Virus record (IMG/VR): IMGVR_UViG_3300029288_000010
Location: 4,847 to 68,846 of that record
Strand: one strand, 5' to 3'
Origin: a virus
Lineage: Duplodnaviria > Caudoviricetes
Length of the DNA stretch: 64,000 nt
In this document: positions 17,999-37,610 of the stretch, piece after piece
How the letters are laid out: every line of letters begins with the position of its first letter
Numbering within the stretch: the stretch's first letter is position 1
Made by a program: the position numbers and the translations under genes
Notes under the pieces: model-generated
What the model saw: only the letters and a program-made list of their open reading frames with translations
The model's database searches: none
Told to the model about the DNA's origin: nothing

Positions 17999-18023
17999 CA
18001 TACCTATTTAAAATGTTTATAAT
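17995..18023 (+). promoter_or_regulatory. Perfect consensus sigma70 promoter for the head operon
   Basis: TTGACA(17995-18000)-17 nt-TATAAT(18018-23). Confidence 0.8.
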
Positions 18024-21320: not shown

Positions 21321-22634
21321 ATGCCATCAGAACCTAATTTAAACATACTAGACATTAAAGTTGGAACTAGGGAAATTAGAAATGCCATCAGGAATCTAAT
21401 CCTTAGTAAATCTGAAATTACTTCAGATATGTTCACTTCTGCCAATGGTGGTATGAAATTGCCTCACAGGTATGCACTCGGTTGGCTTCGGAAACTCGGA
21501 GACAATACTATGCTAAAGAAATCTGGCATGGTAGAGTTTTATGAGTTTAGGGGCAATGAATCACAAATCAATGCCATTGACTGGACAGATATGGCAATGT
21601 ATCCACAAGTAGAGCTTACTGACCACAGATATTACACTGGTCCAACATTTGATCAGATTACATTAAGCCCACAATGGTTTAGTGCTAAATTCATGATCAC
21701 AGACCAGGATGTCAATGTGGCTACTGAGACCGACTTAGGTGGTCTATTCCTTGAGCTCATGGCTATGAAGCTTGCCAATGAATATGAAAAATTAATGATT
21801 CATGGTAACAAGATTGGCCAGAACACTTCTCGTGCTAAAGCATATGATGACTACGATCCTGACAAAGTAAGCATAGATCCTACCTTCATTAAAACTGACG
21901 GTATCATATCACTTGCTGTTGCGGATGGTATTCAAGTTGACTGTAGCACATGGGAAACTAAGTATTTCAATCCTGAAATATGTAAAGAAATGCTTATGGC
22001 CATTGCTGAGGAACAACAGTTCTTGCTCCAAAGCATGCAGTTCATGGTTAGCCCAAGAGCTTATGAAGACTTCTATGAACATTGTGAAAACAAAGGTGTA
22101 GATACTGCATCTTTGCAATGGGTACTTGGCACAATGCCAATCCAATATCACAAAAAGCTGATTCATGGAGTTCCTCTTTGGGACAACAACCCAAGACAGG
22201 TCAAGAAAGCCAAAATTACATCTTCTGGTGGAACAGTGGATTTGCCTTATGTCCCAATAGTAGAGGACAGTGACAAATTTATACCTCACACAGAAGGAAC
22301 ATTCTACACCCCATATGTAAATGGCACAGCAGATGACTATACATTGGATCTTACAACTGGCAAAGTTACCCATACTGGAACTGACACATCTTCAATTCCA
22401 TTGGATACTTTCATAAACTTTACCTACAAAGGGCCTGGTGTTGCAGTAATGACATTCCCTGGAAACTTTAAATTTGCAGTTAACACTGATACTGTAAAAA
22501 TAGAGCATGACAGAGTAGTCAATGATGCCACTGACCTATATGTAAGTCATACATCTGGTGACATTGCAATGTGGAGAGCTGATGCTTGTGTATGGACAAA
22601 TGTTCAAAACAAAACACCTACGCTGGCTAGCTAA
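21321..22634 (+). CDS. Major capsid protein (HK97 fold) with inserted beta-rich domain
   Basis: GGMKLP...W.RK, ITL.P......I..Q, LA.EYEKL.IHG, TDGII, F.VSP; high-expression codon style; ~80-aa insertion near residues 290-370. Confidence 0.82.
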   Translation: MPSEPNLNILDIKVGTREIRNAIRNLILSKSEITSDMFTSANGGMKLPHRYALGWLRKLGDNTMLKKSGMVEFYEFRGNESQINAIDWTDMAMYPQVELTDHRYYTGPTFDQITLSPQWFSAKFMITDQDVNVATETDLGGLFLELMAMKLANEYEKLMIHGNKIGQNTSRAKAYDDYDPDKVSIDPTFIKTDGIISLAVADGIQVDCSTWETKYFNPEICKEMLMAIAEEQQFLLQSMQFMVSPRAYEDFYEHCENKGVDTASLQWVLGTMPIQYHKKLIHGVPLWDNNPRQVKKAKITSSGGTVDLPYVPIVEDSDKFIPHTEGTFYTPYVNGTADDYTLDLTTGKVTHTGTDTSSIPLDTFINFTYKGPGVAVMTFPGNFKFAVNTDTVKIEHDRVVNDATDLYVSHTSGDIAMWRADACVWTNVQNKTPTLAS

Positions 22635-23301: not shown

Positions 23302-24012
23302 ATGGGATTATATATAGTCTCTTCTGACATAGTAAATAAGCAAGGGCTTCCTGACAGTGAAGTTGAGAAGATCATTGATACAATAGAAGAGCAGGTTCAT
23401 TCCTATTGTATGGATATATTCTGTACTTGGGATGACATATATGATGAAAGCTATACATTTAAGTTCAGAGGAGAAGGCAATCCTGTTATTTTCATTGACA
23501 GATTAATACCCTATAACTTGATTTCCATAGCAAATATAGAATACATAGACCCAGAACTAGGGCTAGACACAATAGACGATGAATATGAGTTCAATGAATA
23601 TAGTATTACTAATCTAGACAATGCTTGGAAATCAAGTCGTAGGATGAATTATCAAGTAACATGCAATATAGGAAATGCAGAAACATCAATACTTGGAAAC
23701 ACTAACCCAAAGTATAAGCCAGAAAGCTTGCTATACTGTCTGAAAGCACTAGTAACTAGGGAAATAGACATAATGTATAGCGATGGTGCAGTATATGCTG
23801 GGACTACAAGTTTAGATGTTGATAAAATAAAAGAGTATGAGTTTAACTCAGAAACGGCATTTGATTATTCATATAAACGCAATAAATCCATAATAATAGA
23901 TCCAAGCAATCCAAACCCAACTGGAATACCAACTATAGATTCAATATTGAGAAGTTTACAGAGACAAGATATCAAAATATGGACAGCCAGACAAAACTGG
24001 AGTAAATACTAA
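23302..24012 (+). CDS. Head-tail adaptor
   Basis: IE.Q.HSYC.D.F, Y..T.N.G, E...DYSY, TG...ID.IL pattern; position. Confidence 0.65.
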   Translation: MGLYIVSSDIVNKQGLPDSEVEKIIDTIEEQVHSYCMDIFCTWDDIYDESYTFKFRGEGNPVIFIDRLIPYNLISIANIEYIDPELGLDTIDDEYEFNEYSITNLDNAWKSSRRMNYQVTCNIGNAETSILGNTNPKYKPESLLYCLKALVTREIDIMYSDGAVYAGTTSLDVDKIKEYEFNSETAFDYSYKRNKSIIIDPSNPNPTGIPTIDSILRSLQRQDIKIWTARQNWSKY

Positions 24013-24362
24013 TGCCTTCTTCCATAATGACTCCACATCAAGTAGATGTTGAGAGGCAAACTCCTGCTCAAGATGATACTGGTGGATATGATGATTCTAC
24101 CTATAGCACAATATATGAAAATCTTAAATGTAGAATAGCATCAGTAGAGTCTCTATATGGAAATAAAAACATTGGATATGCCAAAGAAATGTTTAGTGGA
24201 ATGCCAGAAGTAACTGCTGTAATGATGGCATCAACTAAATTGGATAACATGGATAGAATCACATTTGGTGATACTATATATGAAATACGTAAAATATACC
24301 CAGTATATGCATTTAGAAAACTACATCACTATACTTATGGGTTAAAGCAAATCACTATATAA
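24012..24362 (+). CDS. Head closure (stopper) protein
   Basis: V.VERQT...D.TGGY...Y.T...LKCR; DRI.FGD.IYEI; HHY. Confidence 0.75.
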   Translation: MPSSIMTPHQVDVERQTPAQDDTGGYDDSTYSTIYENLKCRIASVESLYGNKNIGYAKEMFSGMPEVTAVMMASTKLDNMDRITFGDTIYEIRKIYPVYAFRKLHHYTYGLKQITI

Positions 24363-24384: not shown

Positions 24385-26067
24385 ATGGGAAATTGCTCTA
24401 TTAAGATCAATCAATCAGATAACCCACTATCCTATATTAAATTCAATCTCAAAGAAATGAAAAGGAAGTTAAGGATCTGTCTATTGCAACCAGGTGGCTG
24501 TGGGGATTCTATAATGGTAGAGCCCATTGCAAGGTGGATTAAAGACAATAATGATAATACTGAAATAGCATTTGCTGCCAGGCCTGAATACATGAAGGTA
24601 ATGATGAATAATCCATATTTTAAGGTTATTGATGGATTTGAAATATTAAAGGCAATTAAAAATCATGATAGTGGGATATTGAACCAATTTGACATTCCTC
24701 CCATTAACTTTGCTACTGCAATAAATACTAATCCAGATGCAGAGAAAATGCACTACATAGATGCTCATTATAAATATATAGACCAAGATATTGACACTAA
24801 CTCCATACCAATAGAATACAAAATTCCAAGATTGTTTATAAAAGAAGATAGGGCTAAGTTAGCAAAAAGCTGGTTTAATGTTATGGAATTAAGAGATAGA
24901 ATAACTGTTGGAATACAAATAAGATCTAGTAGTTATGTAAGGAATTGGAATAAAAATAAAGAGCTTGCATTACTATTAGGTAGCAATGGATACAATGTAA
25001 TATTATTCTCAAACAACCCTTATGACTTTTTTAGTGGTCCAAACATATATACTCCGCCATTCAAATATACTCACCAGCAAATGGAGAATGTTGTAGCATT
25101 TGCAAATGAATGTGACATATTGGTTAGCCCAGACAGTAGCTTTGTTCAAATAGCACAGGCATTAAATAAGAAATTAGTATGCATGTATGGACCATTCCCA
25201 AGCGAATATAGAGTTAAATACTATGATAATGTAATAGCCATAGAGAACCATGATCATGAAAAATTTAAATGTATGCCATGTTATCTTCATCATCATACGT
25301 GCCCATTTGGATCAACTTCTCCATGTATGGACTCTATAAGTGTTGATGATGTATTTGATGCAATAGTTAAAAAGTCGCATGAATATGGCATGGATACAGG
25401 TAAACTAGTAAACACTGAATTCTATAGTGAAAAAATATACAGTTCAATTAAATGTATAGATGGCAACAATTTTGCAATAATGTCTCCAAATTATGGAGTA
25501 TGGACTTGTGAGAATGCTCAAGAAATAGCAAATAGAATTAAAACCCATACACAGGGTGCTTATCCAAATATGTCACAGTTCTGCATAGCAGACATGGGAT
25601 GCGGAGATGGAGCGCTTATGGATGCAATATCTAAATGCTCAAGAGATAAATTTTATCCGCTTCTGTATGGGATAGATATTATGGATTCTGCAAAACATCA
25701 AGCTAGGGTCAACCATCATGATATATGGAGCAATATTAAGAAGGCAGACATTAGAGAAAGATTTATTTGGTCCAATGGCAAATTAAACTGTATTATCTAC
25801 AATGAAATACTTGAGCACATGGATATATATGGTGCAATAGAAGCAATTAAAACTGGCAAATCATACTTGCATAACAAGGGAATAATGTATATATTATATA
25901 GTATGGAACATGCAAAGTTTGACATGCATAAAGTTTTTGGAATGATAGGAATGGAGATTGTATCCAATAGCATGATAGACAATAAAACAGAACTAATAGC
26001 AAGGAAAATACAGAATGAGACAAATACGAGCAATATCCAACAAAGTAATAGCAAAGAGAACCAATAG
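24385..26067 (+). CDS. GT9 (heptosyltransferase-like) glycosyltransferase fused to a class I SAM methyltransferase
   Basis: GG.GDSIM.EP..R...NPY; LVSPDSSF.QIA.AL.K....YGPF; Cys-rich CMPC....CP....CM; C-terminal ADMGCGDG. Confidence 0.82.
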   Translation: MGNCSIKINQSDNPLSYIKFNLKEMKRKLRICLLQPGGCGDSIMVEPIARWIKDNNDNTEIAFAARPEYMKVMMNNPYFKVIDGFEILKAIKNHDSGILNQFDIPPINFATAINTNPDAEKMHYIDAHYKYIDQDIDTNSIPIEYKIPRLFIKEDRAKLAKSWFNVMELRDRITVGIQIRSSSYVRNWNKNKELALLLGSNGYNVILFSNNPYDFFSGPNIYTPPFKYTHQQMENVVAFANECDILVSPDSSFVQIAQALNKKLVCMYGPFPSEYRVKYYDNVIAIENHDHEKFKCMPCYLHHHTCPFGSTSPCMDSISVDDVFDAIVKKSHEYGMDTGKLVNTEFYSEKIYSSIKCIDGNNFAIMSPNYGVWTCENAQEIANRIKTHTQGAYPNMSQFCIADMGCGDGALMDAISKCSRDKFYPLLYGIDIMDSAKHQARVNHHDIWSNIKKADIRERFIWSNGKLNCIIYNEILEHMDIYGAIEAIKTGKSYLHNKGIMYILYSMEHAKFDMHKVFGMIGMEIVSNSMIDNKTELIARKIQNETNTSNIQQSNSKENQ

Positions 26068-26290
26068 ACTCATTGAAGAGCATCATGGCATAGCAATACC
26101 ACAGACTGCAAAAGTTATTTCTGTAGTGTGTGAGGTATTGTCTGTTGGGCCAAGGGTTAGAAGTGGCATAAAAGTTGGAGACATGATATTTAAAGATCAG
26201 TATTTAAGACCAGATACTGAATTTGAAGTTGATGGTCAAAAGCTACTTTTATTAAATGAAGATGAAATTCATTGTAAGGTAGAAGAATAA
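26015..26290 (+). CDS. groES: GroES-like co-chaperonin
   Basis: VIAKR...HGIAIP..AK...VLSVGP.V..IKVGD.I....EFEVDGQKLLLLNEDEI.CKVE. Confidence 0.8.
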   Translation: MRQIRAISNKVIAKRTNRLIEEHHGIAIPQTAKVISVVCEVLSVGPRVRSGIKVGDMIFKDQYLRPDTEFEVDGQKLLLLNEDEIHCKVEE

Positions 26291-26863
26291 TTGACTGTAT
26301 TATCTAGACAGGGTCTTCCTCAAACCACTTCTTTAAATGTAAAGAAATGGAAAGTTAAAAGCAGTGGAATGACTAAAGCTACTGCTAAATTTAAGGGTGC
26401 CATAAACGTAGATTTAGAGTGGAAATTAAAATTGGATGCTGACAAGTTTTGTAGGGAATATATGGCAAAGTGTATAGAAGAGGGCATGGGTAAAATAGGG
26501 AAAGACATAAAAGATAGAGCTTACATGCAGGCCGGTGGAGAAAGAATATACATTGGTGGAATGACAAAATGGCAAAGAATAAAAGCATATTATGCAGCAA
26601 CTAAACTTTCTCCTCCTGAAAGAGTTAGAATTGAAACTGGGCTATACAAAAATAACTTCACCCATAAAATTCAATCTACTCATGAAAACTTAAAAACATC
26701 ACTAACTATTGGCAATCAATACAAACATGCAGCCTATGTAGAATCAAAAACAGGCAATTTAACTGCTGCAATGCTTTCATTGTGGGTATCCATTTTATAC
26801 CAAATAGGACTATCTCTAGGCAAAGCAATGACAACATGGGAATCAAGTAGTAATACTCAATAA
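26291..26863 (+). CDS. Tail completion/neck protein (HK97 gp10-like)
   Basis: IETGLYKNN...IGNQYKHAAYVE motif; TTG start. Confidence 0.6.
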   Translation: MTVLSRQGLPQTTSLNVKKWKVKSSGMTKATAKFKGAINVDLEWKLKLDADKFCREYMAKCIEEGMGKIGKDIKDRAYMQAGGERIYIGGMTKWQRIKAYYAATKLSPPERVRIETGLYKNNFTHKIQSTHENLKTSLTIGNQYKHAAYVESKTGNLTAAMLSLWVSILYQIGLSLGKAMTTWESSSNTQ

Positions 26864-26878
26864 ATATAAGGAACCAAT

Positions 26879-27256
26879 ATGATGGTAAAACCAATAAAAT
26901 ACAATCCAAATGAATTAGCAATATTTATAGACATCAATGATAAAAGTGACTACAGGGGAGCTGCCAACTTTGCTAGGGCAAAATATTGTATAAACATGCA
27001 CCCAATGTCTTTTAGAATATTCTATATAATGGATGAACTGTCTAATGGTAAAATAAAAGAAATTAACTCCTATTTGTTAAATATGAATGGCAAATTTAGA
27101 GGGTCGCTAATAAGATCTTGTGAAGTTGAAGAAATAGCCAATAAGTATAGGAATAAAGTTGCCATAAGTGGATCTGCAATTATAGGCAAGACATCCAATG
27201 ACAATGATTTACCAAAGATCATAGGACCATCTGATGAAAAAAAGATCACAGGATAA
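26879..27256 (+). CDS. Hypothetical protein
   Basis: AAGGA SD, 125 aa. Confidence 0.6.
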   Translation: MMVKPIKYNPNELAIFIDINDKSDYRGAANFARAKYCINMHPMSFRIFYIMDELSNGKIKEINSYLLNMNGKFRGSLIRSCEVEEIANKYRNKVAISGSAIIGKTSNDNDLPKIIGPSDEKKITG

Positions 27257-27282
27257 ATCTAGAAGATATCACTACAGAAACA

Positions 27283-29376
27283 ATGAATTTTGGCAAGAAA
27301 AATAAAGCAGAAGTTACTATTTCTATTTTGTGTTTTAATAGGCTAAATGCAACCAAAGATTGTGTTAATAGCATATTGCAATCTAAAACCAAATATGACT
27401 ACAACATTATCCTTACTGACAATGGAAGCTATGACAAGGCAAATAAAGACTTTCTAATTGAAACTTACAAGAATAATGAGAATATTGCACTACTATTGCA
27501 CAATGGCAACATGGGATTTATAGATGGCCACAGAAAGGCATTGGAAATAGCAACTGGAAAATACTTTCTATTACTAAACAATGATATCATTGTATATGAT
27601 GGATGGTTAGATGATTTAGTAGATAAAATTAAAAAAGATAAAAATGCAAAAGCAGTAGGAGTACACCCATGCAAGCTTGATAATAATGGCGTTGGAGGCA
27701 TAGTATCTAAAACAGACTTTGACTATGTGGAAGGTGACTGCCTAATGGTAGAGACTGAATTTATAAAAGAATTTGGTCTATTTTCTCCAAAACTATACTT
27801 TATATATTATGAAGATTCAGATTTATGTTTAAGGCTAAAAGAACATAACTATGGAGTAGCTTATTGTGATACCAACAAAATAGTCCACATTCCAATGGTC
27901 AAAGCAATAAATACAAGTAAGGATAAAACAAGGCATGTTCATGACAACCAAGAATATTTCAAAAAGAGATGGGGATACTATCTAAAACATAAAACATTTA
28001 AAAATGCTAAATATATTATCAAGAGAAAACATGCGATAGGAGACACCTTATATACTCTACCTATTGCAAAGACATTAAAGGAATTAAATCCTTCTTGTAA
28101 TATACTACTAGAGACAGATTGCCCTCAAATAGCAAAAATAATTCCCTATATAGATTCAACAATAGACACTGGGAGCATTAGCTATGATGGATATAATGTA
28201 TTAGACTGTGATTTTGCACATGAAAATAACCCAATGACTCCTATATATGAAGCCTTTTGGAAAAGCATTGGCATAAAAGTAAATAGCATAACTCCAGATA
28301 TCCCAATAAACAATGATGTTAATGCTAAATTAAAAGATAAATACAACTTCCCATACATAATAGCTCACTGGGGTCCATCATTTGGATGGGATGGAAGGAA
28401 TGTTGACAAGGAAACTATTGACTGTATAAGTAAGCTAATTAAAAATGAAGGTCTAAAGATAATAGAAGTTGGAACTTCAAAGAATTCTAAATACTCTGAC
28501 TATGTATTGTTGAATCAAGAGTGGGATGTTGATATAGAACTTGTAAGGAATAGTGCTGGGTTTATAGGAATAGATAGTAGTATTATGCATATTGCTCAAG
28601 CACTAGGAACAAAGGGATCTGCCATATTTGGATGTGTAGATCCAAAAACAAGGCTAACTGAAAATAGTTCTATTATTGAATATACGGCAGATGCAGTATG
28701 TAAATTCTGTTGGAATAAATCTGAACCACCAAAGACATTTATACAATGCAGAAGGGGAGACAATATTTGCATTAAAAATATAAATCCAATCCAATTTGCA
28801 GGAATAGCAGTAAAACATATAACCGGCAAAAAGATGAGCAAATTGTTTATAAACAAAAATAATATTAAACTTGAGAACTTAAAAGTAGATTGGGGATGTG
28901 GGTTTAGAAAGGAAAAAGGGTATGTTGGAATCGACATACAAGATTATGACAATGTTGATATTGTTTGTGATGTTATGGACGTTGATAAACAGAAGCTTCC
29001 CAAAGGGTCATGCATAGAAATAAGGTCATTGCACTTTATAGAGCATCATACATATAAAAATGTAATAAAAATACTAAAGGAATGGAAAGAATTGTTGGCT
29101 AATGAAGGAGTTGTTAGAATATTCTTCCCAGACATGTCTATGCTATCAAGAAAAACCAATGATGCAAGAATGCTAGACTTTTCATTAGGCCAATGGCAAA
29201 ATCAATATGATGTCCATAAGAGTTGGTGGACACAGGATTTAATGGTTAAATTTCTTGAAGAAGTAGGATTTAAAAATGTAAAAGCAATACCATATACTGG
29301 GCCTTTGCATACAGTTACTAATATGGTAAATAGAAAAGAAATATGCTGCACTTCGGGAGTGGAAGGAGAAAAATAA
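27283..29376 (+). CDS. Tri-domain GT2 + GT9 + SAM methyltransferase
   Basis: GT2: ISILCFNR, LTDNGS.D, FLLLNND, YYEDSDLC. GT9: HAIGDTL.TLP..K.LK, FIGIDSS.MHIA.ALG...AIFG. MTase: VDWGCG..K..GYVGID. Confidence 0.85.
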   Translation: MNFGKKNKAEVTISILCFNRLNATKDCVNSILQSKTKYDYNIILTDNGSYDKANKDFLIETYKNNENIALLLHNGNMGFIDGHRKALEIATGKYFLLLNNDIIVYDGWLDDLVDKIKKDKNAKAVGVHPCKLDNNGVGGIVSKTDFDYVEGDCLMVETEFIKEFGLFSPKLYFIYYEDSDLCLRLKEHNYGVAYCDTNKIVHIPMVKAINTSKDKTRHVHDNQEYFKKRWGYYLKHKTFKNAKYIIKRKHAIGDTLYTLPIAKTLKELNPSCNILLETDCPQIAKIIPYIDSTIDTGSISYDGYNVLDCDFAHENNPMTPIYEAFWKSIGIKVNSITPDIPINNDVNAKLKDKYNFPYIIAHWGPSFGWDGRNVDKETIDCISKLIKNEGLKIIEVGTSKNSKYSDYVLLNQEWDVDIELVRNSAGFIGIDSSIMHIAQALGTKGSAIFGCVDPKTRLTENSSIIEYTADAVCKFCWNKSEPPKTFIQCRRGDNICIKNINPIQFAGIAVKHITGKKMSKLFINKNNIKLENLKVDWGCGFRKEKGYVGIDIQDYDNVDIVCDVMDVDKQKLPKGSCIEIRSLHFIEHHTYKNVIKILKEWKELLANEGVVRIFFPDMSMLSRKTNDARMLDFSLGQWQNQYDVHKSWWTQDLMVKFLEEVGFKNVKAIPYTGPLHTVTNMVNRKEICCTSGVEGEK

Positions 29377-30071
29377 TGACAAGTATTGATTTTTATCAAC
29401 CAGCCTATTCCCCAAATGGGGAGTTCTTAAAGAAAGTTTGCCCATTCTTCTACCATTTTTGGTGTGATTCTTTGTGGCACAATGCAGTTCCAAAAGATAC
29501 TGCTGGGCTATCTTATTTAGACATAGGATGTGCTGATGGACTATATCTACTTAGGTTTATGCAAAGAGGTGGCAAATCAGCCTGCGGAGTTGATCCAAAA
29601 ATTAAGGCTAGTGGATTTGAATATTTAAAAGAACTATATAATCCCATTCAATATATTGGAATAGAAGGATGTGTTAATAAGGAAGGAAATATAATACCAG
29701 ATGTTGAACCAGCAAATATAGTAAATTGCATGAACATGATTGAATACACTGACGATCCATATAAATGCTTAGAAACCCTGTTAAACAAAACAATAGATAG
29801 GCTAATAGTAACTGTAGATATGGGGCCAAAGACAGGATATTCAAATAAACTTAATCAATGGTTATTTAATAAAAATGAATTTGTAAGCAAAATACCTTAT
29901 CCATTTATAGTGTGGGAAGAGAATGATTTAACATATCCTCAAATAGCATGTGTAGTTGTTAATAAAACAAATGCAATACAGCCTATGCCCCCTGGGGCAA
30001 TACATTGTTCAACGGATATTACTGAAACTCAAAAGTATTACCTTGAATCAATCGAAGTAGGAAATAAATAA
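29376..30071 (+). CDS. Class I SAM-dependent methyltransferase
   Basis: SYLDIGCADG, GVDP, CMNMIEY; likely start 29376 (TAATG overlap). Confidence 0.75.
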   Translation: MTSIDFYQPAYSPNGEFLKKVCPFFYHFWCDSLWHNAVPKDTAGLSYLDIGCADGLYLLRFMQRGGKSACGVDPKIKASGFEYLKELYNPIQYIGIEGCVNKEGNIIPDVEPANIVNCMNMIEYTDDPYKCLETLLNKTIDRLIVTVDMGPKTGYSNKLNQWLFNKNEFVSKIPYPFIVWEENDLTYPQIACVVVNKTNAIQPMPPGAIHCSTDITETQKYYLESIEVGNK

Positions 30072-30838
30072 TGCTACCAGAACAATGCCAATTTATAGTT
30101 CTTGCTGGAGTAAATAAATGTGGAACTTCATCTTTGGCTTATGCACTAAAAAAACATCCAAATATATATCTAGCAAATGGTAAAGAGCCAGCATTCTTTG
30201 TAGAGGATAGGTTTTTTGATTCACAGGGCAAGGTCAATGAAGTTGACTTAAGTAATTACCATTTCTATGTATATAAGTTCTTTGAGAGTGTAACACATTA
30301 CCTTGATGCTTCTACGATATATTCTGGATTCCCAAAATGTATGAAGAGGATAATGGAATATAGATCAGATGCTAAAATAGTTATTGTATTTAGAAATCCA
30401 ATAAATAGAGCATATTCTGCATGGTGGCATTTTGCAAGTGACGGGAAATCAGAAAAACATTCATTCCATGATGCAATAATTAACGAAGCAAAGTACTGTA
30501 TGGAAGCAAAAGACTTAGGATATTCCCTCAGATCTTATGTATCAAGAGGATTTTATTCCAATACCATAAGGATGATTTGGAGATACTTTGATAAATCACA
30601 AGTATTGCCAATAAAATTTGAGAGCATGGTTGCAAACAAACAAGAAACTTTAAATAGTATATTTAACTTTATAGGAGTAGAGCAGGTAGAATTAGAATTT
30701 GGGCATAAGTTGAAAAGTGCCTATCCTTGCCCGATGAGCGATGAAGACAAGGAATATTTAAAATATGTTTATGAATACTCAATAAAAGATTTAGAAAGAA
30801 TGTTGAGTTGGGACTGTAGTGATTGGCTATCAACTTAA
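30071..30838 (+). CDS. PAPS-dependent sulfotransferase (Sulfotransfer_1/3-like)
   Basis: 5'-PSB loop AGVNKCGTSSL, HP.I...KEP.FF, DAST.Y, 3'-PB RNPINRAYSAW, RG.YS, FE. Confidence 0.9.
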   Translation: MLPEQCQFIVLAGVNKCGTSSLAYALKKHPNIYLANGKEPAFFVEDRFFDSQGKVNEVDLSNYHFYVYKFFESVTHYLDASTIYSGFPKCMKRIMEYRSDAKIVIVFRNPINRAYSAWWHFASDGKSEKHSFHDAIINEAKYCMEAKDLGYSLRSYVSRGFYSNTIRMIWRYFDKSQVLPIKFESMVANKQETLNSIFNFIGVEQVELEFGHKLKSAYPCPMSDEDKEYLKYVYEYSIKDLERMLSWDCSDWLST

Positions 30839-30853
30839 TATCAAGAGAGGTCA

Positions 30854-31492
30854 TTGAAGATGATAACGGAAAAGCTATTAAGATGTTCTATTAAATCAGC
30901 AGAATTAGAGCAATCAAGAATCAACGAAAAAGTAATGGGAATAGGAGGATTTACTTCTAACAAAGTAAGGCATTTTTTGAACAATATCTGTGGTGTACTA
31001 CCATTCCACTATCTAGAAGTTGGAACCCATCATGGCTCAACAATAATAGCAGCTTCATTTAGGAATCATGGTAAATATACAGGAATAGATGATTTTTCAC
31101 AGTTTCAGGGAAGGGAGAAGGTCCTCTTTGATAACATAAATCAATTTAATGGACTATGCAATATTAAATTTATCAATGGGAACTCTTTTAGTAAAGAAGT
31201 TATTGACCAAATAGACAATAATAGCATAGAAGTATATTTCTATGATGGAGACCATTCCTATGAATCGCAATATAAAGCACTTGTTGATTATATTGGTAAG
31301 ATGAATAAAAAGTTCTGCTTTATAGTTGATGACTGGAATTGGGAAGGCCCAAGAAATGGAACCAATGATGCTATTAGCTTCCTTGAATTAAAAACAGTAT
31401 ATAAAGAAGAGTTATTTACCCCAAATTATGAAAATGGAAGGGCAGATAGCTGGTGGAACGGACTGGGAATATTTATATTGGAGAGACAATAG
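30854..31492 (+). CDS. Class I SAM methyltransferase (Methyltransf_24-like)
   Basis: YLEVGTHHGST, GIDDFS, FYDGDHSY, IVDDWNW, WWNG. Confidence 0.82.
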   Translation: MKMITEKLLRCSIKSAELEQSRINEKVMGIGGFTSNKVRHFLNNICGVLPFHYLEVGTHHGSTIIAASFRNHGKYTGIDDFSQFQGREKVLFDNINQFNGLCNIKFINGNSFSKEVIDQIDNNSIEVYFYDGDHSYESQYKALVDYIGKMNKKFCFIVDDWNWEGPRNGTNDAISFLELKTVYKEELFTPNYENGRADSWWNGLGIFILERQ

Positions 31493-31494
31493 AC

Positions 31495-32292
31495 ATGGCC
31501 AAACTAGGAGGATCAATATTTACACATAACTGCATTAAGTATGATTATTGCTTTAAAGAATCTATTAGAAGCCTATGTGGAGTTTGCGATGAAGTTGTAT
31601 GCTTAGACGCTGAAAGTGATGATGGAACACTTGAAGAGCTTAAAGTATTACGAGGTGAACTGCCAAATCTAAAAATAATACAAGATAAATGGGAACAGCA
31701 CATAGAAGGAAGCCCTGGATATGACAGGCTTTGCATATTAGCAAACAAGGCAAGGGAGGAATTAAGCACTGAATGGCATTTCATGCTTCAGGCAGATGAA
31801 GTTATACATGAAAGTTCTCATGATCATATAAGAGAATTTATTGATAGCCCAAATATTAGTTCAGTTGTTTGCTTGAGATATAATATATATGGAGACTTTG
31901 ATCATTATGTTAAATTAACTAGTGCAAAGAAGCCATGTGGAGACTTTATAGTCAGATTAGCAAGAAAGTCATGCCGAGTAGTTGGAGACGCAGAGTCTAT
32001 AATGATGCATCCTGTAGTATATAGAGATGAACCGCAGTCAGCTATAAAAATATTTCACTATGGAATGGTAAGACATCCATATATTTTTGTTGACAAAGTA
32101 ATAGATATGCAAAAATGGTTTTTTGGAGTTCCAGATTATAGATTTGTTCAATACAAATCAGATGGAAATAGGTGGAATCCATTAGACATCATACCAAAAG
32201 AAGAACTTAATGCCCTTAAAATTAACCATCCAAGCATAGTTTCTAATTGGATAGAAAAGAGAAGATCTTTTTATAACATAAATATGGTATAA
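31495..32292 (+). CDS. GT2-like (GT-A fold) glycosyltransferase
   Basis: HNCIKYDY.F.E.I.SL..VCDEVV.LD..S.DGT; W.F.LQADE; IFHYG. Confidence 0.8.
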   Translation: MAKLGGSIFTHNCIKYDYCFKESIRSLCGVCDEVVCLDAESDDGTLEELKVLRGELPNLKIIQDKWEQHIEGSPGYDRLCILANKAREELSTEWHFMLQADEVIHESSHDHIREFIDSPNISSVVCLRYNIYGDFDHYVKLTSAKKPCGDFIVRLARKSCRVVGDAESIMMHPVVYRDEPQSAIKIFHYGMVRHPYIFVDKVIDMQKWFFGVPDYRFVQYKSDGNRWNPLDIIPKEELNALKINHPSIVSNWIEKRRSFYNINMV

Positions 32293-32344: not shown

Positions 32345-32494
32345 ATGCCGTGGAAAAGCAAAAAACAAATGGCCTGGGGAAATTCAAAATCCGGGAGAGA
32401 ATCTATGGGAGAAAAGAAAGTAAGTGAATTTAATAAGGCTACTAAGGGCAAGAAATTGCCTAAAAAAATTAAAAAAACAAAGAAAGGCAAATAA
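32345..32494 (+). CDS. Small very basic protein (49 aa, not in track)
   Basis: MPWKSKKQMAWGNSKSGRESMGEKKVSEFNKATKGKKLPKKIKKTKKGK; AAAGGA SD; resembles the MP(F/W)KSK.Q-type basic phage peptides. Confidence 0.75.
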   Translation: MPWKSKKQMAWGNSKSGRESMGEKKVSEFNKATKGKKLPKKIKKTKKGK

Positions 32495-32495
32495 T

Positions 32496-32846
32496 ATGAA
32501 AAAGGTATTTTTAGCATCAATGCTTATAATGTCAATTTGTGGAATAGCATATTCATCAGTTTTCCTTGAATGCAATCCAATACCTCAAAGCCAAAATGAT
32601 CCAAGCAATCTAGTGGATCATTACATTATAACCATAGATGGGTTAAGCAACATTGTATTGCCAATAAAGGATGAAACTGCTTGCACTGCAAAGTTTAAAT
32701 ATGAGTTAACCGGGATATCACTTGGAGATCATTCTATTTTCATTAAGACTGTTAATTATTTTGGGGTTGAAAGCGACCCTTTCGAGTTCTCTTGTCCTGT
32801 AGAGAAACCGGACTCTCCTTCTGGCGTAAAGATAGTGGCAGAATAA
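32496..32846 (+). CDS. Secreted Ig/FN3-like small protein
   Basis: Likely start 32496 (MKKVFLASMLIMSICGIAYS signal peptide); beta-strand pattern ending P.SPSGV.I. Confidence 0.65.
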   Translation: MKKVFLASMLIMSICGIAYSSVFLECNPIPQSQNDPSNLVDHYIITIDGLSNIVLPIKDETACTAKFKYELTGISLGDHSIFIKTVNYFGVESDPFEFSCPVEKPDSPSGVKIVAE

Positions 32847-33002
32847 AAGAGATAAGGGAATTTGAATATTATGTTGTTAATGAATAAAACTTTAAAATAT
32901 ACCAAAGATTGTGGATTCGTTTTAATTGGAGTTCTCTGGTATTTTTTAAGAAATATTTCAGGTAATAATTACTTTGGTTGGAATGGAGATTGAGAGGATA
33001 GC

Positions 33003-36000
33003 ATGAACAGGCTTTCACAGACCAATATCGTGATACTTTTCTCCGTTATTGCTATCCTCTCAATTTGCTCTATTGGATATCCAGAAGATTACTGGGTATA
33101 TGTCACTACTACAGATGATTATTCCTCTTCTGAAGGGTCTAACTCTCAAAAAGGTGACATGGTTGATGCTATACCTGCAAGCATCTATACTCCGACAACC
33201 GAAGAAAAGAAATTGTGGGCTATTTTTAAAGTGTCTGGAACGACAAAAGAAGAACTTGAATTTTACAAACAGCCTGGCTATAAGTCAGTTGACACTTCAA
33301 AAGGATATAGCTGGTACAGAAAACACAAACTCGACATAAAATCTCTTGGATTAGAAACAAAGGGAGTTAGAGAAGGAACTTTTAATTGGTCGTACGTAAA
33401 ATCCAAAATATCTGAAAAAACCAATACTGATTTAGCACAATGGAGAGACAATCATAATTATCAAGTAAAAATAGATTACTGGATGTCATATCTTAAGGTA
33501 TTTGAAACAGTTAAAGCATGGGCTACTTCTACAGTAGTTAAGACTGTTAATAAAACAAGTGGTGATTACAATACTCTGACCCTTTGGGAGGATGCAACTG
33601 ACAATGATTCCCTAATTACAGCAGACGAAATTAGAGTAGCCGAATGCTATGATGATTTGAATAATGGTATTTTAGACGACAGAACAGCCTTTAGTATAAC
33701 TGGAACATACATAGATTCTACTCATTACCGTGATGTCTATGCTCCTTCTGGACAGAGGCATAATGGCATAGAAGATAACTCTGCAAATCCTTCTGGTTTC
33801 TGTATTGACCCATCAACTAATGGAAGTGTAATTATAATTTATGAAAGTTATATTAGATTTCATGACATCCGTATTAAAGGCTGGGGGAATGACGGGTATG
33901 GATATACAAGTGCCATTTCGGTTCAAGAAGGAAATTATGTAAGAATTTATAACAATCTAATTTACAAGCCAAATGGTGGGAACGATAGAGGATATAGGGG
34001 AATTTATTTTGCAGATGTACCAAATTATCTTTACATTTACAACAATGCTATTATCAATGTATCAGGTAAAAGTGGATATCATGCTTATGGAATTGGATCT
34101 TATAATGATAACAATGTTTACATAATTGGTAATTCAATTTATAACATTACAGGGTCAAGCGGATCCAGTGCCTATGGCATCCTTTCTGGAAGCACGAAGC
34201 ATGTAGTATCGAACAATATAGTAATTACTTGCACCACAGCTTGTTTTTCTGGAACTTGTGCAGCTTCCTCAAATAACAATATGTCATCTGATACAAGTTC
34301 ACCTGGAGCTGCTGGAATCGACAATGAAACAACTGGTGAATTTACTTCTGTAACTGCTGACTCAGTTGATGTTCACCTTGCTGCCGATGCAAATGCTATT
34401 GAAGCTGGATTAGATGCTTCTTCAACTTTAGGATGCACCGCAAGCTCAACTTGTATTGACTATGTATATAATATAAGACCACAAAGAACTAACTGGGACA
34501 TGGGATGCCATGAAAAACCACCCGTTCCTACTCCAACACTAACTATAACAGCAACTGCTACAGCTACAATTACAAGAACTCCAACTTTAACAATTACAAG
34601 AACTCCAACCATTACAGTCACAGCAACAGATACCATGACTCCAACTTTGTCTGCAACTCCTACAATGACTCTTACATTGTCTAATACTCCTACAATGACT
34701 GTGACTGAAACCATTACAGCAACTCCTTCATATACAGCAACACCTACAGCAACTTGTGTTGAACCTGATAATAGAATCAGAATTGGATTAAATGCTAATT
34801 GTGATTATGCTGGTGGATGGGAAGATACTCATGTTGATAAGCAAAATCCAAATACAAATTATGGAAATGACGAAACAATGGAAGTTCAAACTGTTGCAAT
34901 GCAAAATGCAGCATATGTTCATTTCAGATTTAATACTGGAGACTTATATAACTATGTAGATATTACTTCTGCACGTCTTTGGGTTTACATTACAACAGCA
35001 AGTTCATTGTTGCCATATAGCCCAGAATTATATGCTTTAAACCAAGCATGGGTCGAATTACAAGACACCTTTAATATTTACTCAACTGGAAATTCATGGA
35101 CAGGTTCTGATGGTGGGAATCAGGACAAAGGTGATTCATATGGTTCAGGGACTTGGTATGCTGGTCCCAAATGGAGAGTAATGGAATTAAATGCTGCATG
35201 TATTGCTCAATTAGAATCATCTGCTGGAACTGGTAATTCAATCGACTTTTTCCTAACAGATGAAGCTGTATTTGGCTCAAATTATACAATGGCAAGTAGT
35301 GAAAATACCGATGACTCACGAAGACCTTATGTAGAGATTTGCTACCATACTTATATAACACCAACACAAACTTTAACTCCTACAATGACCTTAACATCTA
35401 CCTTAACACAAACACCAACACTTTCAGCTACTATAACACAGACAATTACCATTACTCCAGCAACCCCAACGAATACCATGACTCCTACATTATCAAATAC
35501 TCCTACTCAAACGGTTACAGCAACCCAAACACAAACTGCCACTGTCACAGCAACTGCAACTGAAACTCCAGTTCCTACCTGTGGCTCTCATTCAAGAGCA
35601 AGATTTGGGGATGGCTCATTCTGTGAATTTGTGGACTGGGCAGATACTTATGTTGATTTCTCACACCCTACTGCAAACTATGGAACTGATTCTAATTTAT
35701 GGATAGACCCAGATGGAGCAAATACAAGATATACGCACATCAGGTCTAATATTAGAGCAATCTATCCAGCAACAATAAGTTCAGCAAGGTTATATTTTTA
35801 TGTATCAGACACTAACTCACAGGAAATGAATTTAATAACTAAAATATTGAGTTCTGATAATTCAAAGCAATTCAGTGAAATACAAGACACATGGAGACTA
35901 TATGAAACTGGTCATTCATGGGAGAACGAAGATGGTGGAATGAGTGATGCTGGTGATACCATATCAAGCACATGGTGGGGCAATGTAACTGGATGGCAAT

Positions 36001-36392
36001 TTATAGAATTCAATGTAACCGGAATTACTTATTTAACTACTCAAATGAATGCCAATACCCCATGCCAATTTATTATCTACTCCTCTTCTGGTAAAAGGCA
36101 ACTTGTTAGTTCTGATGGAACTGATTTAAATAGGCCATACTTAGAAATTTGCTATGACCCAATGCCAACTCCAACTGCTACAGCTACAGCTACAGCTACA
36201 CAAACTGCCACTGCTACACAAACTGCCACACAAACAAGTACATTAACTCCAACTAATACACAAACACCAACACTAACAATAACTAGGACCCCAACCGTAT
36301 CTCCAACTGAATGTGATGGGTATATAATAGAAGAAAAGCCAGGGTCTGGAATAATTCATTCATTACAAAAGAGAAGTAGTATGAAGCAATAA
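33003..36392 (+). CDS. Large secreted/adhesin-like protein: signal peptide, beta-helix-like domain, two DNRLRE/CBM96-like domains, Thr/Pro-rich linkers
   Basis: N-terminal hydrophobic leader; NN.IY/NN.I repeats; DT.V....P.TNYG...RFN....ITSARL.VY twice; three TPT-rich tracts. Confidence 0.75.
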   Translation: MNRLSQTNIVILFSVIAILSICSIGYPEDYWVYVTTTDDYSSSEGSNSQKGDMVDAIPASIYTPTTEEKKLWAIFKVSGTTKEELEFYKQPGYKSVDTSKGYSWYRKHKLDIKSLGLETKGVREGTFNWSYVKSKISEKTNTDLAQWRDNHNYQVKIDYWMSYLKVFETVKAWATSTVVKTVNKTSGDYNTLTLWEDATDNDSLITADEIRVAECYDDLNNGILDDRTAFSITGTYIDSTHYRDVYAPSGQRHNGIEDNSANPSGFCIDPSTNGSVIIIYESYIRFHDIRIKGWGNDGYGYTSAISVQEGNYVRIYNNLIYKPNGGNDRGYRGIYFADVPNYLYIYNNAIINVSGKSGYHAYGIGSYNDNNVYIIGNSIYNITGSSGSSAYGILSGSTKHVVSNNIVITCTTACFSGTCAASSNNNMSSDTSSPGAAGIDNETTGEFTSVTADSVDVHLAADANAIEAGLDASSTLGCTASSTCIDYVYNIRPQRTNWDMGCHEKPPVPTPTLTITATATATITRTPTLTITRTPTITVTATDTMTPTLSATPTMTLTLSNTPTMTVTETITATPSYTATPTATCVEPDNRIRIGLNANCDYAGGWEDTHVDKQNPNTNYGNDETMEVQTVAMQNAAYVHFRFNTGDLYNYVDITSARLWVYITTASSLLPYSPELYALNQAWVELQDTFNIYSTGNSWTGSDGGNQDKGDSYGSGTWYAGPKWRVMELNAACIAQLESSAGTGNSIDFFLTDEAVFGSNYTMASSENTDDSRRPYVEICYHTYITPTQTLTPTMTLTSTLTQTPTLSATITQTITITPATPTNTMTPTLSNTPTQTVTATQTQTATVTATATETPVPTCGSHSRARFGDGSFCEFVDWADTYVDFSHPTANYGTDSNLWIDPDGANTRYTHIRSNIRAIYPATISSARLYFYVSDTNSQEMNLITKILSSDNSKQFSEIQDTWRLYETGHSWENEDGGMSDAGDTISSTWWGNVTGWQFIEFNVTGITYLTTQMNANTPCQFIIYSSSGKRQLVSSDGTDLNRPYLEICYDPMPTPTATATATATQTATATQTATQTSTLTPTNTQTPTLTITRTPTVSPTECDGYIIEEKPGSGIIHSLQKRSSMKQ
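34519..34753 (+). repeat. Degenerate tandem repeats encoding the first Thr/Pro linker
   Basis: For example acaattacaagaactccaac twice at 24-nt spacing; similar tracts near 35355-35580 and 36160-36310. Confidence 0.7.
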
Positions 36393-36393
36393 A

Positions 36394-36422
36394 TTGATTT
36401 AAAGTATAATTTAACTTATAAT
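36394..36422 (+). promoter_or_regulatory. sigma70-type promoter
   Basis: TTGATT(36394-99)-17 nt-TATAAT(36417-22). Confidence 0.65.
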
Positions 36423-36450
36423 ATAAACATGAGATATACGGAGATGTACC

Positions 36451-37101
36451 ATGACAGATAAAATAACAATAGCAAGTATAGTTGCTTTTATTATATTTGT
36501 ATTATATATGATCTTATTTTATGGATCTTGCCATGCAGGAATACCGGTTGGAACACCATACCATATAAAGGCAGTAGTGTCAAATGGTCAAGTATTTCAA
36601 ACTGGGCAATCTGTCCAGGTTGGGATATTGAGAAATAGTGATTTATATTGGTATGATTTTGTAAATACTAAATTTATATCAAACCCAGCAAATAACTGCT
36701 ATGATGACATGACCGAATATGATTCTCACCCATTATTTGGATTCTATGATTATAGTTGGACTCCCCCTATTAGGAAGAAAATAAGCATATCATCAACGGT
36801 AGGAACCATAAGTGTTGGAGATACTGTAAAAGGATGCACTAGTTTAGCCAATGGTACTGTTTTAACAAAAACTGCAAGCTACATTATTGTAGATAATATA
36901 TTTGGTACATTTCAAAATAATGAGAAAATTTGCTTAGGATCTGATACATGTTCCACTTCAACAAACTATTTTATGTCTAGTGGTACTGGAGTTGATGTTC
37001 CTGAGATATATACATTTTTTGCAATATGCAGTGGTGACATAAAACTCTATTCAGCAGTAGATATATCAACTGACGTTATCAATTTCTATTTCGGTCAATA
37101 A
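36451..37101 (+). CDS. Signal-peptide-bearing beta-rich hypothetical protein
   Basis: Hydrophobic leader ending CHA; beta-rich body. Confidence 0.65.
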   Translation: MTDKITIASIVAFIIFVLYMILFYGSCHAGIPVGTPYHIKAVVSNGQVFQTGQSVQVGILRNSDLYWYDFVNTKFISNPANNCYDDMTEYDSHPLFGFYDYSWTPPIRKKISISSTVGTISVGDTVKGCTSLANGTVLTKTASYIIVDNIFGTFQNNEKICLGSDTCSTSTNYFMSSGTGVDVPEIYTFFAICSGDIKLYSAVDISTDVINFYFGQ

Positions 37102-37112
37102 GGAGACACTAA

Positions 37113-37601: not shown

Positions 37602-37610
37602 GGCAATAAT

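Follow-up and report, generated by a model that had tools for sequence, protein, structure and literature searches.

The question raised by this locus is why an uncultured tailed phage should carry, among the genes that build its particle, a set of enzymes for making and decorating a glycan, and to what that glycan is attached. The genome is 69 kb (the record is complete by a 127-bp terminal overlap), and the window is the 64,000-nt stretch of it that was analysed; the genome is low-GC and strongly depleted of CpG (observed/expected 0.27), and a co-binned 0.96-Mb genome is probably not that of its host. The nine genes at 24385–32292, credited with seven soluble glycan enzymes, are all on the same strand. 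The cassette lies after the head-tail adaptor gene and before the tail genes, interleaved with genes for GroES and an HK97-gp10-like protein:

17995–18023, plus strand: sole perfect sigma-70-type promoter match (12/12 consensus), upstream of the portal gene
24012–24362, plus strand: head-tail adaptor, upstream border of the cassette (phrog_793 connector, E 7e-6)
24385–26067, plus strand: gene 1, fusion of a GT9-like domain and a class-I SAM methyltransferase (Pfam, AF2 model, orthologue)
26015–26290, plus strand: GroES/Cpn10 co-chaperonin (PF00166, E 1e-10; phrog_3188, E 3e-12), sharing 53 nt with the 3' end of gene 1
26291–26863, plus strand: HK97-gp10-like neck or tail-completion protein, as a lead only (ESM-Atlas feature match 0.94)
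26879–27256, plus strand: 125-aa protein of no assigned function (no matches in domain and family searches)
27283–29376, plus strand: gene 5, triple fusion of a GT2 domain (residues 13–200), a GT9-like domain with four Cys (237–516) and a probable methyltransferase (523–640)
29343–30071, plus strand: gene 6, class-I SAM methyltransferase (Methyltransf_23, 34.8 bits, cut-off 27)
30071–30838, plus strand: gene 7, PAPS-type sulfotransferase of the carbohydrate-sulfotransferase kind (PF00685 Sulfotransfer_1, 53.8 bits)
30854–31492, plus strand: gene 8, Methyltransf_24 methyltransferase (30.7 bits; phrog_1458, E 9e-27)
31495–32292, plus strand: gene 9, GT2-like glycosyltransferase of GT-A type, from a large family associated with phages (family and AF2 model)

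The glycan domains named in the original prediction are confirmed: two GT9-like, two GT-A/GT2, four SAM methyltransferase (two of them fused to transferases) and one sulfotransferase. The co-orientation and start/stop coupling also stand, successive gaps along the cassette being 22, −53, 0, 15, 26, −34, −1, 15 and 2 nt (overlaps negative). The predicted surroundings held up less well. The upstream gene, taken for a head stopper, belongs to a head-tail adaptor family and is not specifically a stopper; the supposed neck gene has no Pfam or PHROG match, and its HK97-gp10-like assignment comes from the ESM-Atlas match, to HK97-gp10_like / Phage_tail_S clusters whose members are nearly all viral; and five genes (32424–37877) whose products have hydrophobic N-terminal segments separate the cassette from the tail genes. 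No terminator-like sites were found on the plus strand between 21.5 and 34.9 kb, and the promoter upstream of the portal gene probably starts a late transcript covering the cassette, with which its genes would be co-transcribed. None of the cassette proteins contains a TM-like segment, and the phage contig carries no flippase, polymerase, ligase, lipid-carrier or initiating transferase, or tyrosine integrase, which agrees more with direct cytoplasmic glycosylation than with lipid-linked synthesis of a surface glycan or with lysogenic conversion. As predicted, genes for sugar-nucleotide or PAPS synthesis (NTP_transferase, Epimerase, APS kinase, ATP sulfurylase) are absent from the contig. The cassette is a coherent set of enzymes for building and decorating a glycan, set inside a late morphogenesis operon.

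Gene 1 matches PF01075 (31.3 bits, cut-off 22) and Methyltransf_23 (27.3 bits, cut-off 27), and a full-length orthologue (P0003, 35% identity) has the identical architecture. Its AF2 model (pLDDT 87) aligns in VIA-align with the GT9 structure 3TOV (Z 25.9), WaaF (25.3) and WaaC (20.8), and its C-terminal part with class-I methyltransferases (Z ~20). The GT2 domain of gene 5 scores 62.2 bits; the GT9 match of this protein is weak in Pfam (21.9 bits), and alignment of residues 237–516 with the family profile by hhalign gives a probability of 99.1 and E 4e-19. Its C-terminal methyltransferase is probable, as judged from phrog_6636 (E 5e-5) and a GxG motif. WaaC/WaaF of LPS synthesis and 3TOV (CAZy GT9, PF01075) are the best profile and structure matches (E 6e-33 and 7e-29 for the family profile, Z 25–26) and have N-terminal GD and C-lobe DS motifs in common with the phage domains, but the latter add a four-Cys knuckle (C296, C299, C306 and C314 in gene 1) and fused methyltransferase or GT2 domains. 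The two GT9 domains belong to a distinct subfamily in which this knuckle is conserved. The subfamily gave 1383 HMMER matches and was found at 15 IMG/VR phage loci, whereas its motif occurred in none of 185,579 prokaryote species genomes in a related but stricter, single-pattern scan; it looks phage-associated. Some members contain inteins, or Lar or HNH domains. Membership of two characterized families was rejected: the WaaF equivalog model, with its cut-off at 134.6 bits, gives 34 and 18 bits, and the TibC/Aah model (BAHT, TIGR04414) 12 bits against 200. Since the domains are equivalogs neither of LPS heptosyltransferases nor of TibC/Aah, ADP-heptose, the usual donor of GT9 enzymes, is here a guess.

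Gene 6 has weak PDB matches to UbiG-type O-methyltransferases, and its stop is overlapped by 1 nt by the start of gene 7, the best PDB matches of which are 3RNL (E 9e-18) and, at E 1e-6, NDST1 and 3-OST-3. The PAPS and catalytic motifs of gene 7 are intact, NKCGTSSL, KEPAFF and FRNPINRAYS aligning with all three structures as the 5'-PSB, Glu-base and 3'-PB motifs, respectively. It shares with the heparan-sulfate-type enzymes NDST1 and 3-OST and the bacterial 3RNL the Sulfotransfer_1 fold signature, the 5'-PSB (K-x-G-T-S/T), the 3'-PB (R-N/D-P-x-x-R-x-x-S) and the Glu of E-P-x-F-F, but it is a stand-alone phage protein of 255 aa for which no PAPS source is encoded. Gene 8 has homologues (~30% identity) in T4-like cyanophages, where they are the C-terminal portion of a longer protein (527 aa). 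Gene 9, for which ATG 31495 is the more likely start, alone scores 19.2 bits where the GT2 threshold is 23.3; the family to which it belongs has 276 homologues, many with PF00535, and the AF2 model (pLDDT 92) predicts a GT-A fold, with best PDB matches to SunS/ThuS (E 7e-10) and the GT2 enzymes TarS/RmlT. The top matches, SunS/ThuS, are peptide-glycosylating GT2 enzymes.

Our tentative working hypothesis, the best reading of the cassette, is that it glycosylates the virion or other phage proteins; the acceptor, the sugar and its donor, and the biological role are what we infer. Soluble cytoplasmic enzymes, expressed late, would assemble a short glycan from host sugar nucleotides on a cytoplasmic acceptor, using the two GT9-like and two GT-A/GT2 domains, and the four SAM methyltransferase domains and the PAPS-type sulfotransferase would then tailor it. 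The acceptors would most likely be phage structural proteins modified during particle assembly, and the product a methylated, possibly sulfated glycan coat. What argues for phage proteins as acceptors is the position and packing of the genes, the solubility of the enzymes, the distribution of the GT9-like subfamily, the morphogenesis neighbours, the recurrence of the enzymes, a TPTL motif, the SunS/ThuS matches and a mycobacteriophage precedent. The dependence of gene 7 on host PAPS speaks against a virion glycan. So do the solved structures nearest to the GT9 domain, which are of LPS type, and the low score of that domain in the TibC/Aah model. Three proteins offer candidate sites, the third only if it is part of the virion:

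21321–22634, plus strand: major capsid-like protein ending KTPTLAS (phrog_1623 virion structural protein, E 2.6e-9)
43885–45921, plus strand: 678-aa distal tail or hub-like protein that contains GTPTLSIS internally (phrog_1887 tail protein, E 2e-7)
33003–36392, plus strand: 1129-aa protein comprising a signal or anchor segment at the N terminus, a beta-helix-like region, two CBM96 domains and three Thr/Pro linkers

Among 90 proteins, TPT falls within the final eight residues in the capsid-like protein alone (0.056 proteins expected from shuffles). Apart from the 1129-aa protein, TPTL occurs just twice, at the C terminus of the capsid-like protein and in the 678-aa protein, and at least two such occurrences arise in 0.9% of shuffles, a signal that is small and post hoc and in that respect counts against a virion acceptor. 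The 1129-aa protein, encoded one small gene after the cassette on the same strand, is far richer as a potential O-glycosylation substrate than any other protein of the genome, with TPT 18 times and TPTL six times in ~220 residues of TPT-type linker; its signal-like N terminus is a feature that virion proteins usually lack.

Comparable cassettes are found in many uncultured phages. In seven loci (L020, L029–31, L033, L036, L039) a gene 9 homologue is immediately preceded by a homologue of gene 5 (520–909 aa), and a gene 8 homologue adjoins or is fused to the gene 9 family in L040, L041 and P0251. The predicted combination of enzymes also reappears in an unrelated 121-kb phage (L008) as a co-oriented run of GT9-like, GT1, methyltransferase and Sulfotransfer_1 (E 3e-19) genes, and five of the 15 GT9-bearing phage records have a sulfotransferase above cut-off. 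The expected synteny with head-tail genes is seen in some phages. One locus (L003) reads portal, prohead protease, 362-aa protein, GT9-like, GT2, GT2 and GT4, its portal being a homologue of that of the window (phmmer 2e-20); gene 9 homologues follow the portal gene by ~1.5 kb in L021, L022 and L034, and in L033 one lies 7 kb after a tape-measure homologue. Elsewhere it fails: in L005 a DnaB-like helicase and a primase flank the GT9-like homologue, the portal gene is ~30 kb from the module in L030 and L036, and across eight loci replication and sugar-metabolism genes predominate in tallies of the neighbours of GT9-like genes. The modules stand next to a portal or a capsid gene in certain phages and among replication genes in another, and the linkage is not universal; the mixed neighbours and the distant portals tell against the virion reading.

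Sulfated and methylated bacterial surface glycans exist, and one alternative is that the cassette remodels an envelope glycan of the host during infection, either the inner or outer core of LPS, on the cytoplasmic side of the inner membrane, or a precursor of wall or capsular polysaccharide. We regard this as unlikely, and equally so its possible effect, for example keeping progeny or rival phages from adsorbing to infected cells and debris. It would account for the LPS-type structures nearest to the GT9 domains, for the wall-teichoic-acid and polysaccharide transferases (TarS, RmlT) among the sequences that the GT2 domains match best, and for the JGI name of the gene 9 family, 'glycosyltransferase involved in cell wall biosynthesis'; moreover, LPS-core heptosyltransferases are likewise soluble or peripheral, so the missing TM segments are compatible with it. 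It is opposed by the lack of lipid-carrier machinery, integrase and, in the cassette, TM proteins, the WaaF scores far under cut-off, the presence of the GT9 subfamily motif in phage contigs and not in the 185,579 prokaryote genomes scanned, and the location of the cassette in the late structural operon rather than in an early or lysogeny module.

Rather less probable is O-glycosylation of the Thr/Pro linkers of the adjacent 1129-aa protein as a non-virion product, modified in the cytoplasm before Sec export in the manner of TibA/AIDA-I heptosylation or the serine-rich-repeat adhesins; such a secreted or membrane-anchored glycoprotein (a depolymerase, adhesin or exclusion factor, for instance) seems to us similarly improbable. 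The gene is near the cassette and its product has the hydrophobic N terminus, CBM96 domains and linkers described above. TibC has a GT9 fold and a four-Cys finger, and its substrate, a beta-helix protein, receives its sugars in the cytoplasm prior to export (PMC4358343). Gene 1 (model residues 1–314) resembles TibC/Aah (TIGR04414; PDB 4RAP/4RB4) in its GT9-type GT-B fold (Z 21.9, 269 residues aligned) and in the four-Cys metal knuckle near the end of the C-lobe, and TibC/Aah act in the cytoplasm on protein Ser/Thr. However, the N-terminal beta-barrel of TibC (residues 1–97) is absent from the gene 1 model, the Cys spacing is C-x2-C-x6-C-x7-C against C-x2-C-x15-C-x11-C, and the score in the BAHT model is far too low. 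The modules occur without such a neighbour in L003, L008 and L020–L041, and a Thr/Pro-rich protein lies near a module in only one of the 39 other loci (L037), Ser/Thr tails likewise not being recurrent; the rarity of these neighbours weakens a virion acceptor as well.

Very unlikely is hypermodification of phage DNA with a glycan that carries the methyl and sulfate groups, in parallel with glucosyl-hmC of T4 or the 5mYOX/ThyS-linked pathways (hexose, heptose or Kdo on cytosine): glycans on phage DNA have been reported, mono- and di-heptose on 5hmC among them (bioRxiv 10.1101/2023.12.21.572611), and the L005 arrangement and the CpG depletion would suit it, but no ThyA-type hydroxymethylase was found on the contig (a Tet_JBP search found no match there, nor did its positive control), the cassette lies in the head-tail operon, with ~25 kb between it and the DNA-modification genes, the GT-B enzymes published as acting on DNA are similar to T4 beta-GT and the gene 1 model instead matches GT9, and the bioRxiv report mentions sulfotransferase nowhere.

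The proposed glycosylation of phage proteins by phage enzymes has viral parallels. The chlorovirus PBCV-1 encodes host-independent, soluble glycosyltransferases and methyltransferases that place a methylated glycan on its major capsid protein in the cytoplasm; it is a eukaryotic giant virus with N-linked glycans and glycosyltransferase families unrelated to those of the cassette, and we know of no sulfation of its glycan. Our literature search found no paper on a sulfated phage glycan. Accounts of mycobacteriophages (Che8, Corndog/cluster O, Myrna; PMC11600133, PMC11256854, PMC12619734) describe phage glycosyltransferases and an O-methyltransferase that work on capsid and tail-tube proteins in the cytoplasm with no lipid-carrier machinery, and glycans attached to C-terminal parts of structural subunits. 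The cassette differs from the systems described there in its GT9-like enzymes with a four-Cys knuckle, its multi-domain glycosyltransferase–methyltransferase fusions, its PAPS-type sulfotransferase and four methyltransferase domains, and its neck-region location. The precedent had been cited for glycosyltransferases encoded among structural genes, an arrangement not seen in the F1 mycobacteriophage case, where the glycosyltransferase genes lie near the genome end (PMC11256854). An O-methyltransferase and three glycosyltransferases are already described as modifying capsid and tail-tube proteins of cluster O mycobacteriophages (PMC11600133, citing Freeman et al. 2023). If the virion reading is true, novelty would be confined to the GT9 chemistry and to sulfation.

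The window lies at G000:C3:4847-68846. Contig C3, of 68,846 bp, shows an exact 127-bp overlap between its two ends and is therefore a complete, circularly assembling phage genome. No similar phage was found among 50,697 GenBank phages by DNA-level (blastn) or capsid-protein (tblastn) search, nor any relative of the capsid protein among 5.8 billion proteins by word search, so that synteny in related genomes was not directly usable; searches with the terminase and tape-measure proteins yielded nothing closer than distant matches, spread over phages with many different hosts. PHROG scans delineate a siphovirus-type late operon on the + strand, in which distal tail proteins were also assigned:

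15904-17580, + strand: large terminase (PHROG)
18054-19718, + strand: portal (PHROG)
21321-22634, + strand: capsid-like 'virion structural protein' (PHROG)
24012-24362, + strand: head-tail adaptor (PHROG)
40741-43482, + strand: tail-assembly chaperone and tape measure (PHROG)

The sole perfect promoter match precedes the portal gene and the + strand has no terminator-like site from 21.5 to 34.9 kb, an arrangement that would fit a single late transcript.

A gene set for building and decorating a glycan had been claimed at 24385-32292, and family models, hhalign, AF2 models and structural alignment confirm that observation with small corrections. As was also claimed, the genes are co-oriented and lie among morphogenesis genes; tightly packed, with a spacing of -53 to 26 nt, nine of them stand between the adaptor and the tail genes, and all nine proteins lack TM-like segments. 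Gene 1 (24385-26067) matches the GT9 family (PF01075) with 31.3 bits against a cut-off of 22, and its C-terminus matches Methyltransf_23 with 27.3 bits against a cut-off of 27 and aligns to sugar and small-molecule methyltransferases with Z of about 20. In the AF2 model (pLDDT 87), the GT9 part has a GT-B two-Rossmann fold that can be superposed on GT9 structures (VIA-align Z of 25.9 for 3TOV, 25.3 for WaaF (1PSW), 21.9 for TibC and 20.8 for WaaC). HMMER found 1383 relatives of gene 1 among 1.84 billion representatives, and four proteins (P0003, P0004, P0005 and P0009) are full-length orthologues with the same GT9-methyltransferase fusion. The public call of gene 1 (P0002, 536 aa) begins 24 codons after the first ATG (window 24385-24456); the longer form is more likely, because the first ATG comes with a GAGGAG Shine-Dalgarno motif and the alignment with the orthologue P0003 begins at residue 18.

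The GroES assignment within the cassette is clear from its family model, and 26291-26863 resembles HK97 gp10-type neck proteins solely by language-model feature match. Gene 5 (27283-29376) begins with a GT2 domain (PF00535, 62.2 bits against a cut-off of 23.3; match to PDB 5HEA, E 4e-5). Its centre scores 21.9 to 23.3 bits with PF01075, for which the cut-off used with gene 1 is 22, and residues 237-516, the four cysteines discussed below included, align to the GT9 subfamily profile with an hhalign probability of 99.1 (E 4e-19). The C-terminal domain of gene 5, whose sole methyltransferase match is phrog_6636 (E 5e-5), is a probable rather than proven fourth methyltransferase. Genes 6 and 8 score above the methyltransferase thresholds (34.8 bits against 27 and 30.7 bits against 26.3, respectively). 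Gene 7 matches Sulfotransfer_1 (PF00685) with 53.8 bits against a cut-off of 22, and its NKCGTSSL (5'-PSB), KEPAFF and FRNPINRAYS (3'-PB) segments line up with the PAPS-binding and catalytic motifs of 3RNL, NDST1 and 3-OST-3, so that on both the family model and the two PAPS motifs it is predicted to be a PAPS-dependent sulfotransferase; the Glu of its KEPAFF segment aligns with the EPHFF motif of 3-OST-3. Gene 9 itself scores 19.2 bits with the GT2 model PF00535, under the cut-off of 23.3; its family numbers at least 276 proteins, and many homologues (40-55% identity) carry PF00535. The AF2 model of gene 9 (pLDDT 92) has a GT-A fold, for which the best PDB matches, at E 1e-8 to 1e-10, are the peptide glycosyltransferases SunS and ThuS, followed by RmlT and TarS.

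A four-cysteine knuckle, C-x2-C-x6-C-x7-C, directly follows the GT9 domain and is kept in an alignment of 53 subfamily members, three of the cysteines being invariant and one present in at least 90%; an N-terminal GGxGD motif and a C-lobe PDS motif are also conserved among these members. The subfamily profile matches the structures 3TOV (E 6e-33) and WaaF (E 7e-29). The WaaF equivalog model TIGR02195 gave 34.1 and 18.3 bits against a cut-off of 134.6, and the BAHT model TIGR04414 (cut-off 200 bits) gave 12.2 bits for gene 5 (E 0.03) and no match for gene 1. Because the WaaF equivalog fails, as does BAHT, the phage domains are classed by sequence as a distinct GT9 subfamily, and ADP-heptose is only a candidate donor. 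The knuckle recalls the iron finger with which TibC binds its protein substrate (PMC4358343), yet the resemblance is one of motif presence, and the spacing differs from that of Cys339/342/358/370 in TibC (PMC4358343). Of TibC, only residues 91-394 are matched by the gene 1 model (its residues 1-314), whose GT9 domain begins no more than about 25 residues from the N-terminus, and the N-terminal beta-barrel of TibC has no counterpart in the phage GT9 model. With the BAHT model failing, we rejected the knuckle as a TibC-like marker of a protein substrate.

In IMG/VR, 15 loci with the GT9 subfamily were identified; a related motif scan, run with a single pattern over 185,579 prokaryote genomes, returned no member. 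IMG/VR scans with gene 5 as a single protein and with the alignment A1 gave no matches. A sulfotransferase scores above the cut-off in five of the 15 GT9-bearing records, and 24 further loci were located through the gene 9 family. The linkage to morphogenesis genes noted in the window is seen in part of these phages only. In its favour is L003, a complete 96.7-kb phage with a portal homologous to that of the window (phmmer 2e-20), in which the gene order is portal, prohead protease, a 362-aa protein, GT9-like, GT2, GT2, GT4, radical SAM and sugar dehydratase. Three loci (L021, L022 and L034) have a portal gene some 1.5 kb ahead of the gene 9 homologue and a fourth (L018) has one 8 kb away, and in L033 a tape-measure homologue precedes the gene 9 homologue by 7 kb. 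Against it, the GT9-like gene of locus L005 is flanked by a DnaB-like helicase and a primase, replication and sugar-metabolism genes dominate the pooled neighbour tallies of GT9-like genes, and about 30 kb separate the portal from the gene 9 homologue in both L030 and L036. No additional portal gene came up in the loci with a portal HMM derived from the window and L003. Given these mixed neighbourhoods, the cassette is a modular, mobile phage gene set whose place is often, though not in every case, the structural region.

Parts of the cassette recur together. The 121-kb phage L008 has a co-oriented run of GT9-like, a 594-aa protein, GT1, DUF4915-like, methyltransferase and Sulfotransfer_1 (E 3e-19) genes, for whose upstream genes no annotation was obtained. 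Immediately before the gene 9 homologue stands a gene 5 homologue in seven loci (L020, L029-31, L033, L036 and L039) or a gene 8 homologue in two (L040 and L041), and in the protein P0251 the gene 8 and gene 9 types are fused. A motif scan of the 185,579 prokaryote genomes found a single gene 9 homologue (L042), on the 70,374-bp, 32.6% GC contig RXKI01000004.1 of a 'Neisseriaceae bacterium' MAG; this glycosyltransferase gene shares 69% identity with those of the phages L040 and L041, and the contig is probably another phage contig mis-binned into a bacterial MAG. In each of three related large phages (L009-L013; IMGVR_UViG_3300001782_000005 and relatives), three Sulfotransfer_1 genes stand in tandem at a distance of about 77 kb from the GT9-like gene. 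Homologues of gene 8 (30854-31492) with about 30% identity occur in 123 cultured T4-like cyanophages (among them S-RIM12, Syn33 and P-SSM4) and make up the C-terminal third of a 527-aa protein that lacks annotation (L002, S-RIM12 NC_047715.1 32959-34542), the gene for which adjoins a small '2OG-Fe(II) oxygenase / tail fiber' gene. No Pfam domains were found in the neighbours of this protein, and its N-terminal part is unrelated to gene 9.

The original prediction that the phage encodes neither sugar-nucleotide nor PAPS synthesis held in family searches of the phage contig, from which NTP_transferase, Epimerase, APS kinase and ATP sulfurylase are all absent; NTP_transferase and Epimerase were the families covered for the heptose pathway. 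The G000 bin (0.96 Mb, 99% complete, 33% GC) is Shine-Dalgarno-poor and rich in type IV pilin-like proteins, and family searches found in it no LpxC, no PAPS synthesis (APS kinase, ATP sulfurylase) and no GT9 of its own. Shine-Dalgarno motifs precede 60% of the phage genes compared with 3-9% of the bin genes (at or below background), and the CpG observed/expected ratio is 0.27 in the phage contig compared with about 0.7 in the bin. The bin has a CRISPR array (C4:26800-29300) of 39 repeats, the repeat ending with a Cas12a-type stem (ATCTACAAAAGTAGAAAT), and none of its 38 spacers matches the phage. On the Shine-Dalgarno and CpG contrast and the spacer result, we rejected the bin genome as the phage's host. 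The bin is probably not the host, and therefore its missing LpxC, APS kinase and ATP sulfurylase say nothing reliable about the real one.

As to what the cassette modifies, a protein target appears favoured by the solubility of the enzymes, their inferred late co-expression, the absence of lipid-carrier and export machinery and analogy with mycobacteriophages, in which glycosyltransferases and an O-methyltransferase act on capsid and tail tube (PMC11600133). Alternatively, the cassette glycosyltransferases might hypermodify DNA with a glycan. This reading is weakened because no ThyA-type hydroxymethylase (PF00303) is encoded on the phage contig and the predicted fold is GT9 rather than T4 beta-GT-like, and the neighbours of the cassette are morphogenesis genes; a search of the contig for Tet_JBP gave no match, as was likewise the case in control genomes. 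A seroconverting module of the Gtr/Oac type was rejected, since the cassette proteins have no TM-like segment and the contig has no tyrosine integrase. Our working hypothesis for a protein target, which we put forward tentatively and consider rather unlikely to hold as a whole, is that the phage coats its own particle with an O-glycan; GT9 domains of the phage-specific four-Cys subfamily would start or extend this glycan on capsid C-termini, tail and/or fibre linkers, and the cassette methyltransferases and sulfotransferase would methylate and sulfate it.

Virion glycosylation with methylation is already known in phages. To our knowledge, glycosylation of bacterial virus particles has been established experimentally only in a few mycobacteriophages; there it shields virions from antibodies. 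In the literature searched, no paper described a phage cassette with GT9-type chemistry, phage enzymes that fuse a glycosyltransferase with a methyltransferase, or a phage-encoded sulfotransferase whose substrate is a virion glycan. If the coating hypothesis is true, a bacterial virus would for the first time be seen to carry a sulfated glycan, the product of a modular cassette widespread in uncultured phages, and many environmental phages would bear negatively charged, tailored glycan coats, which could affect adsorption, aggregation, binding to mucus or particles and resistance to recognition by hosts or grazers. It would also provide new soluble protein-glycosylating, sugar-methylating and sugar-sulfating enzymes for glyco-engineering, and would change phage annotation, because such genes are usually labelled 'LPS' or 'cell wall' auxiliary genes.

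Each of the next five genes after the cassette (32424-37877) starts with a hydrophobic or TM-like segment, and the stretch may have been inserted as a module for secreted or membrane proteins, or may serve in lysis. Among the five is the gene for a 1129-aa protein (33003-36392) with two CBM96 domains and three Thr/Pro linkers. Two of the five proteins have a common 'SIC(G/S)I' signal-end motif, and the stretch shows reversed GC skew and higher GC content (34-38 kb). The sequence TPTL occurs six times in the 1129-aa linker protein and elsewhere among the 90 proteins only at the capsid C-terminus (KTPTLAS) and in a 678-aa tail protein (GTPTLSIS; 43885-45921). Two or more occurrences outside the 1129-aa protein arose in 0.9% of shuffles, and the expected number of proteins with TPT among their last eight residues is 0.056; the pattern was recognized post hoc and is only suggestive as a clue to the acceptor. 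Just upstream of the putative tail-tube gene, a 261-aa protein (window 37916-38701) ends in a Cys-rich C-terminus, CGCFCCGFRVIVDACCYA, with six Cys in 18 residues, which may be compared with the fact that SunS and ThuS, the closest structural matches of gene 9, are S-glycosyltransferases.
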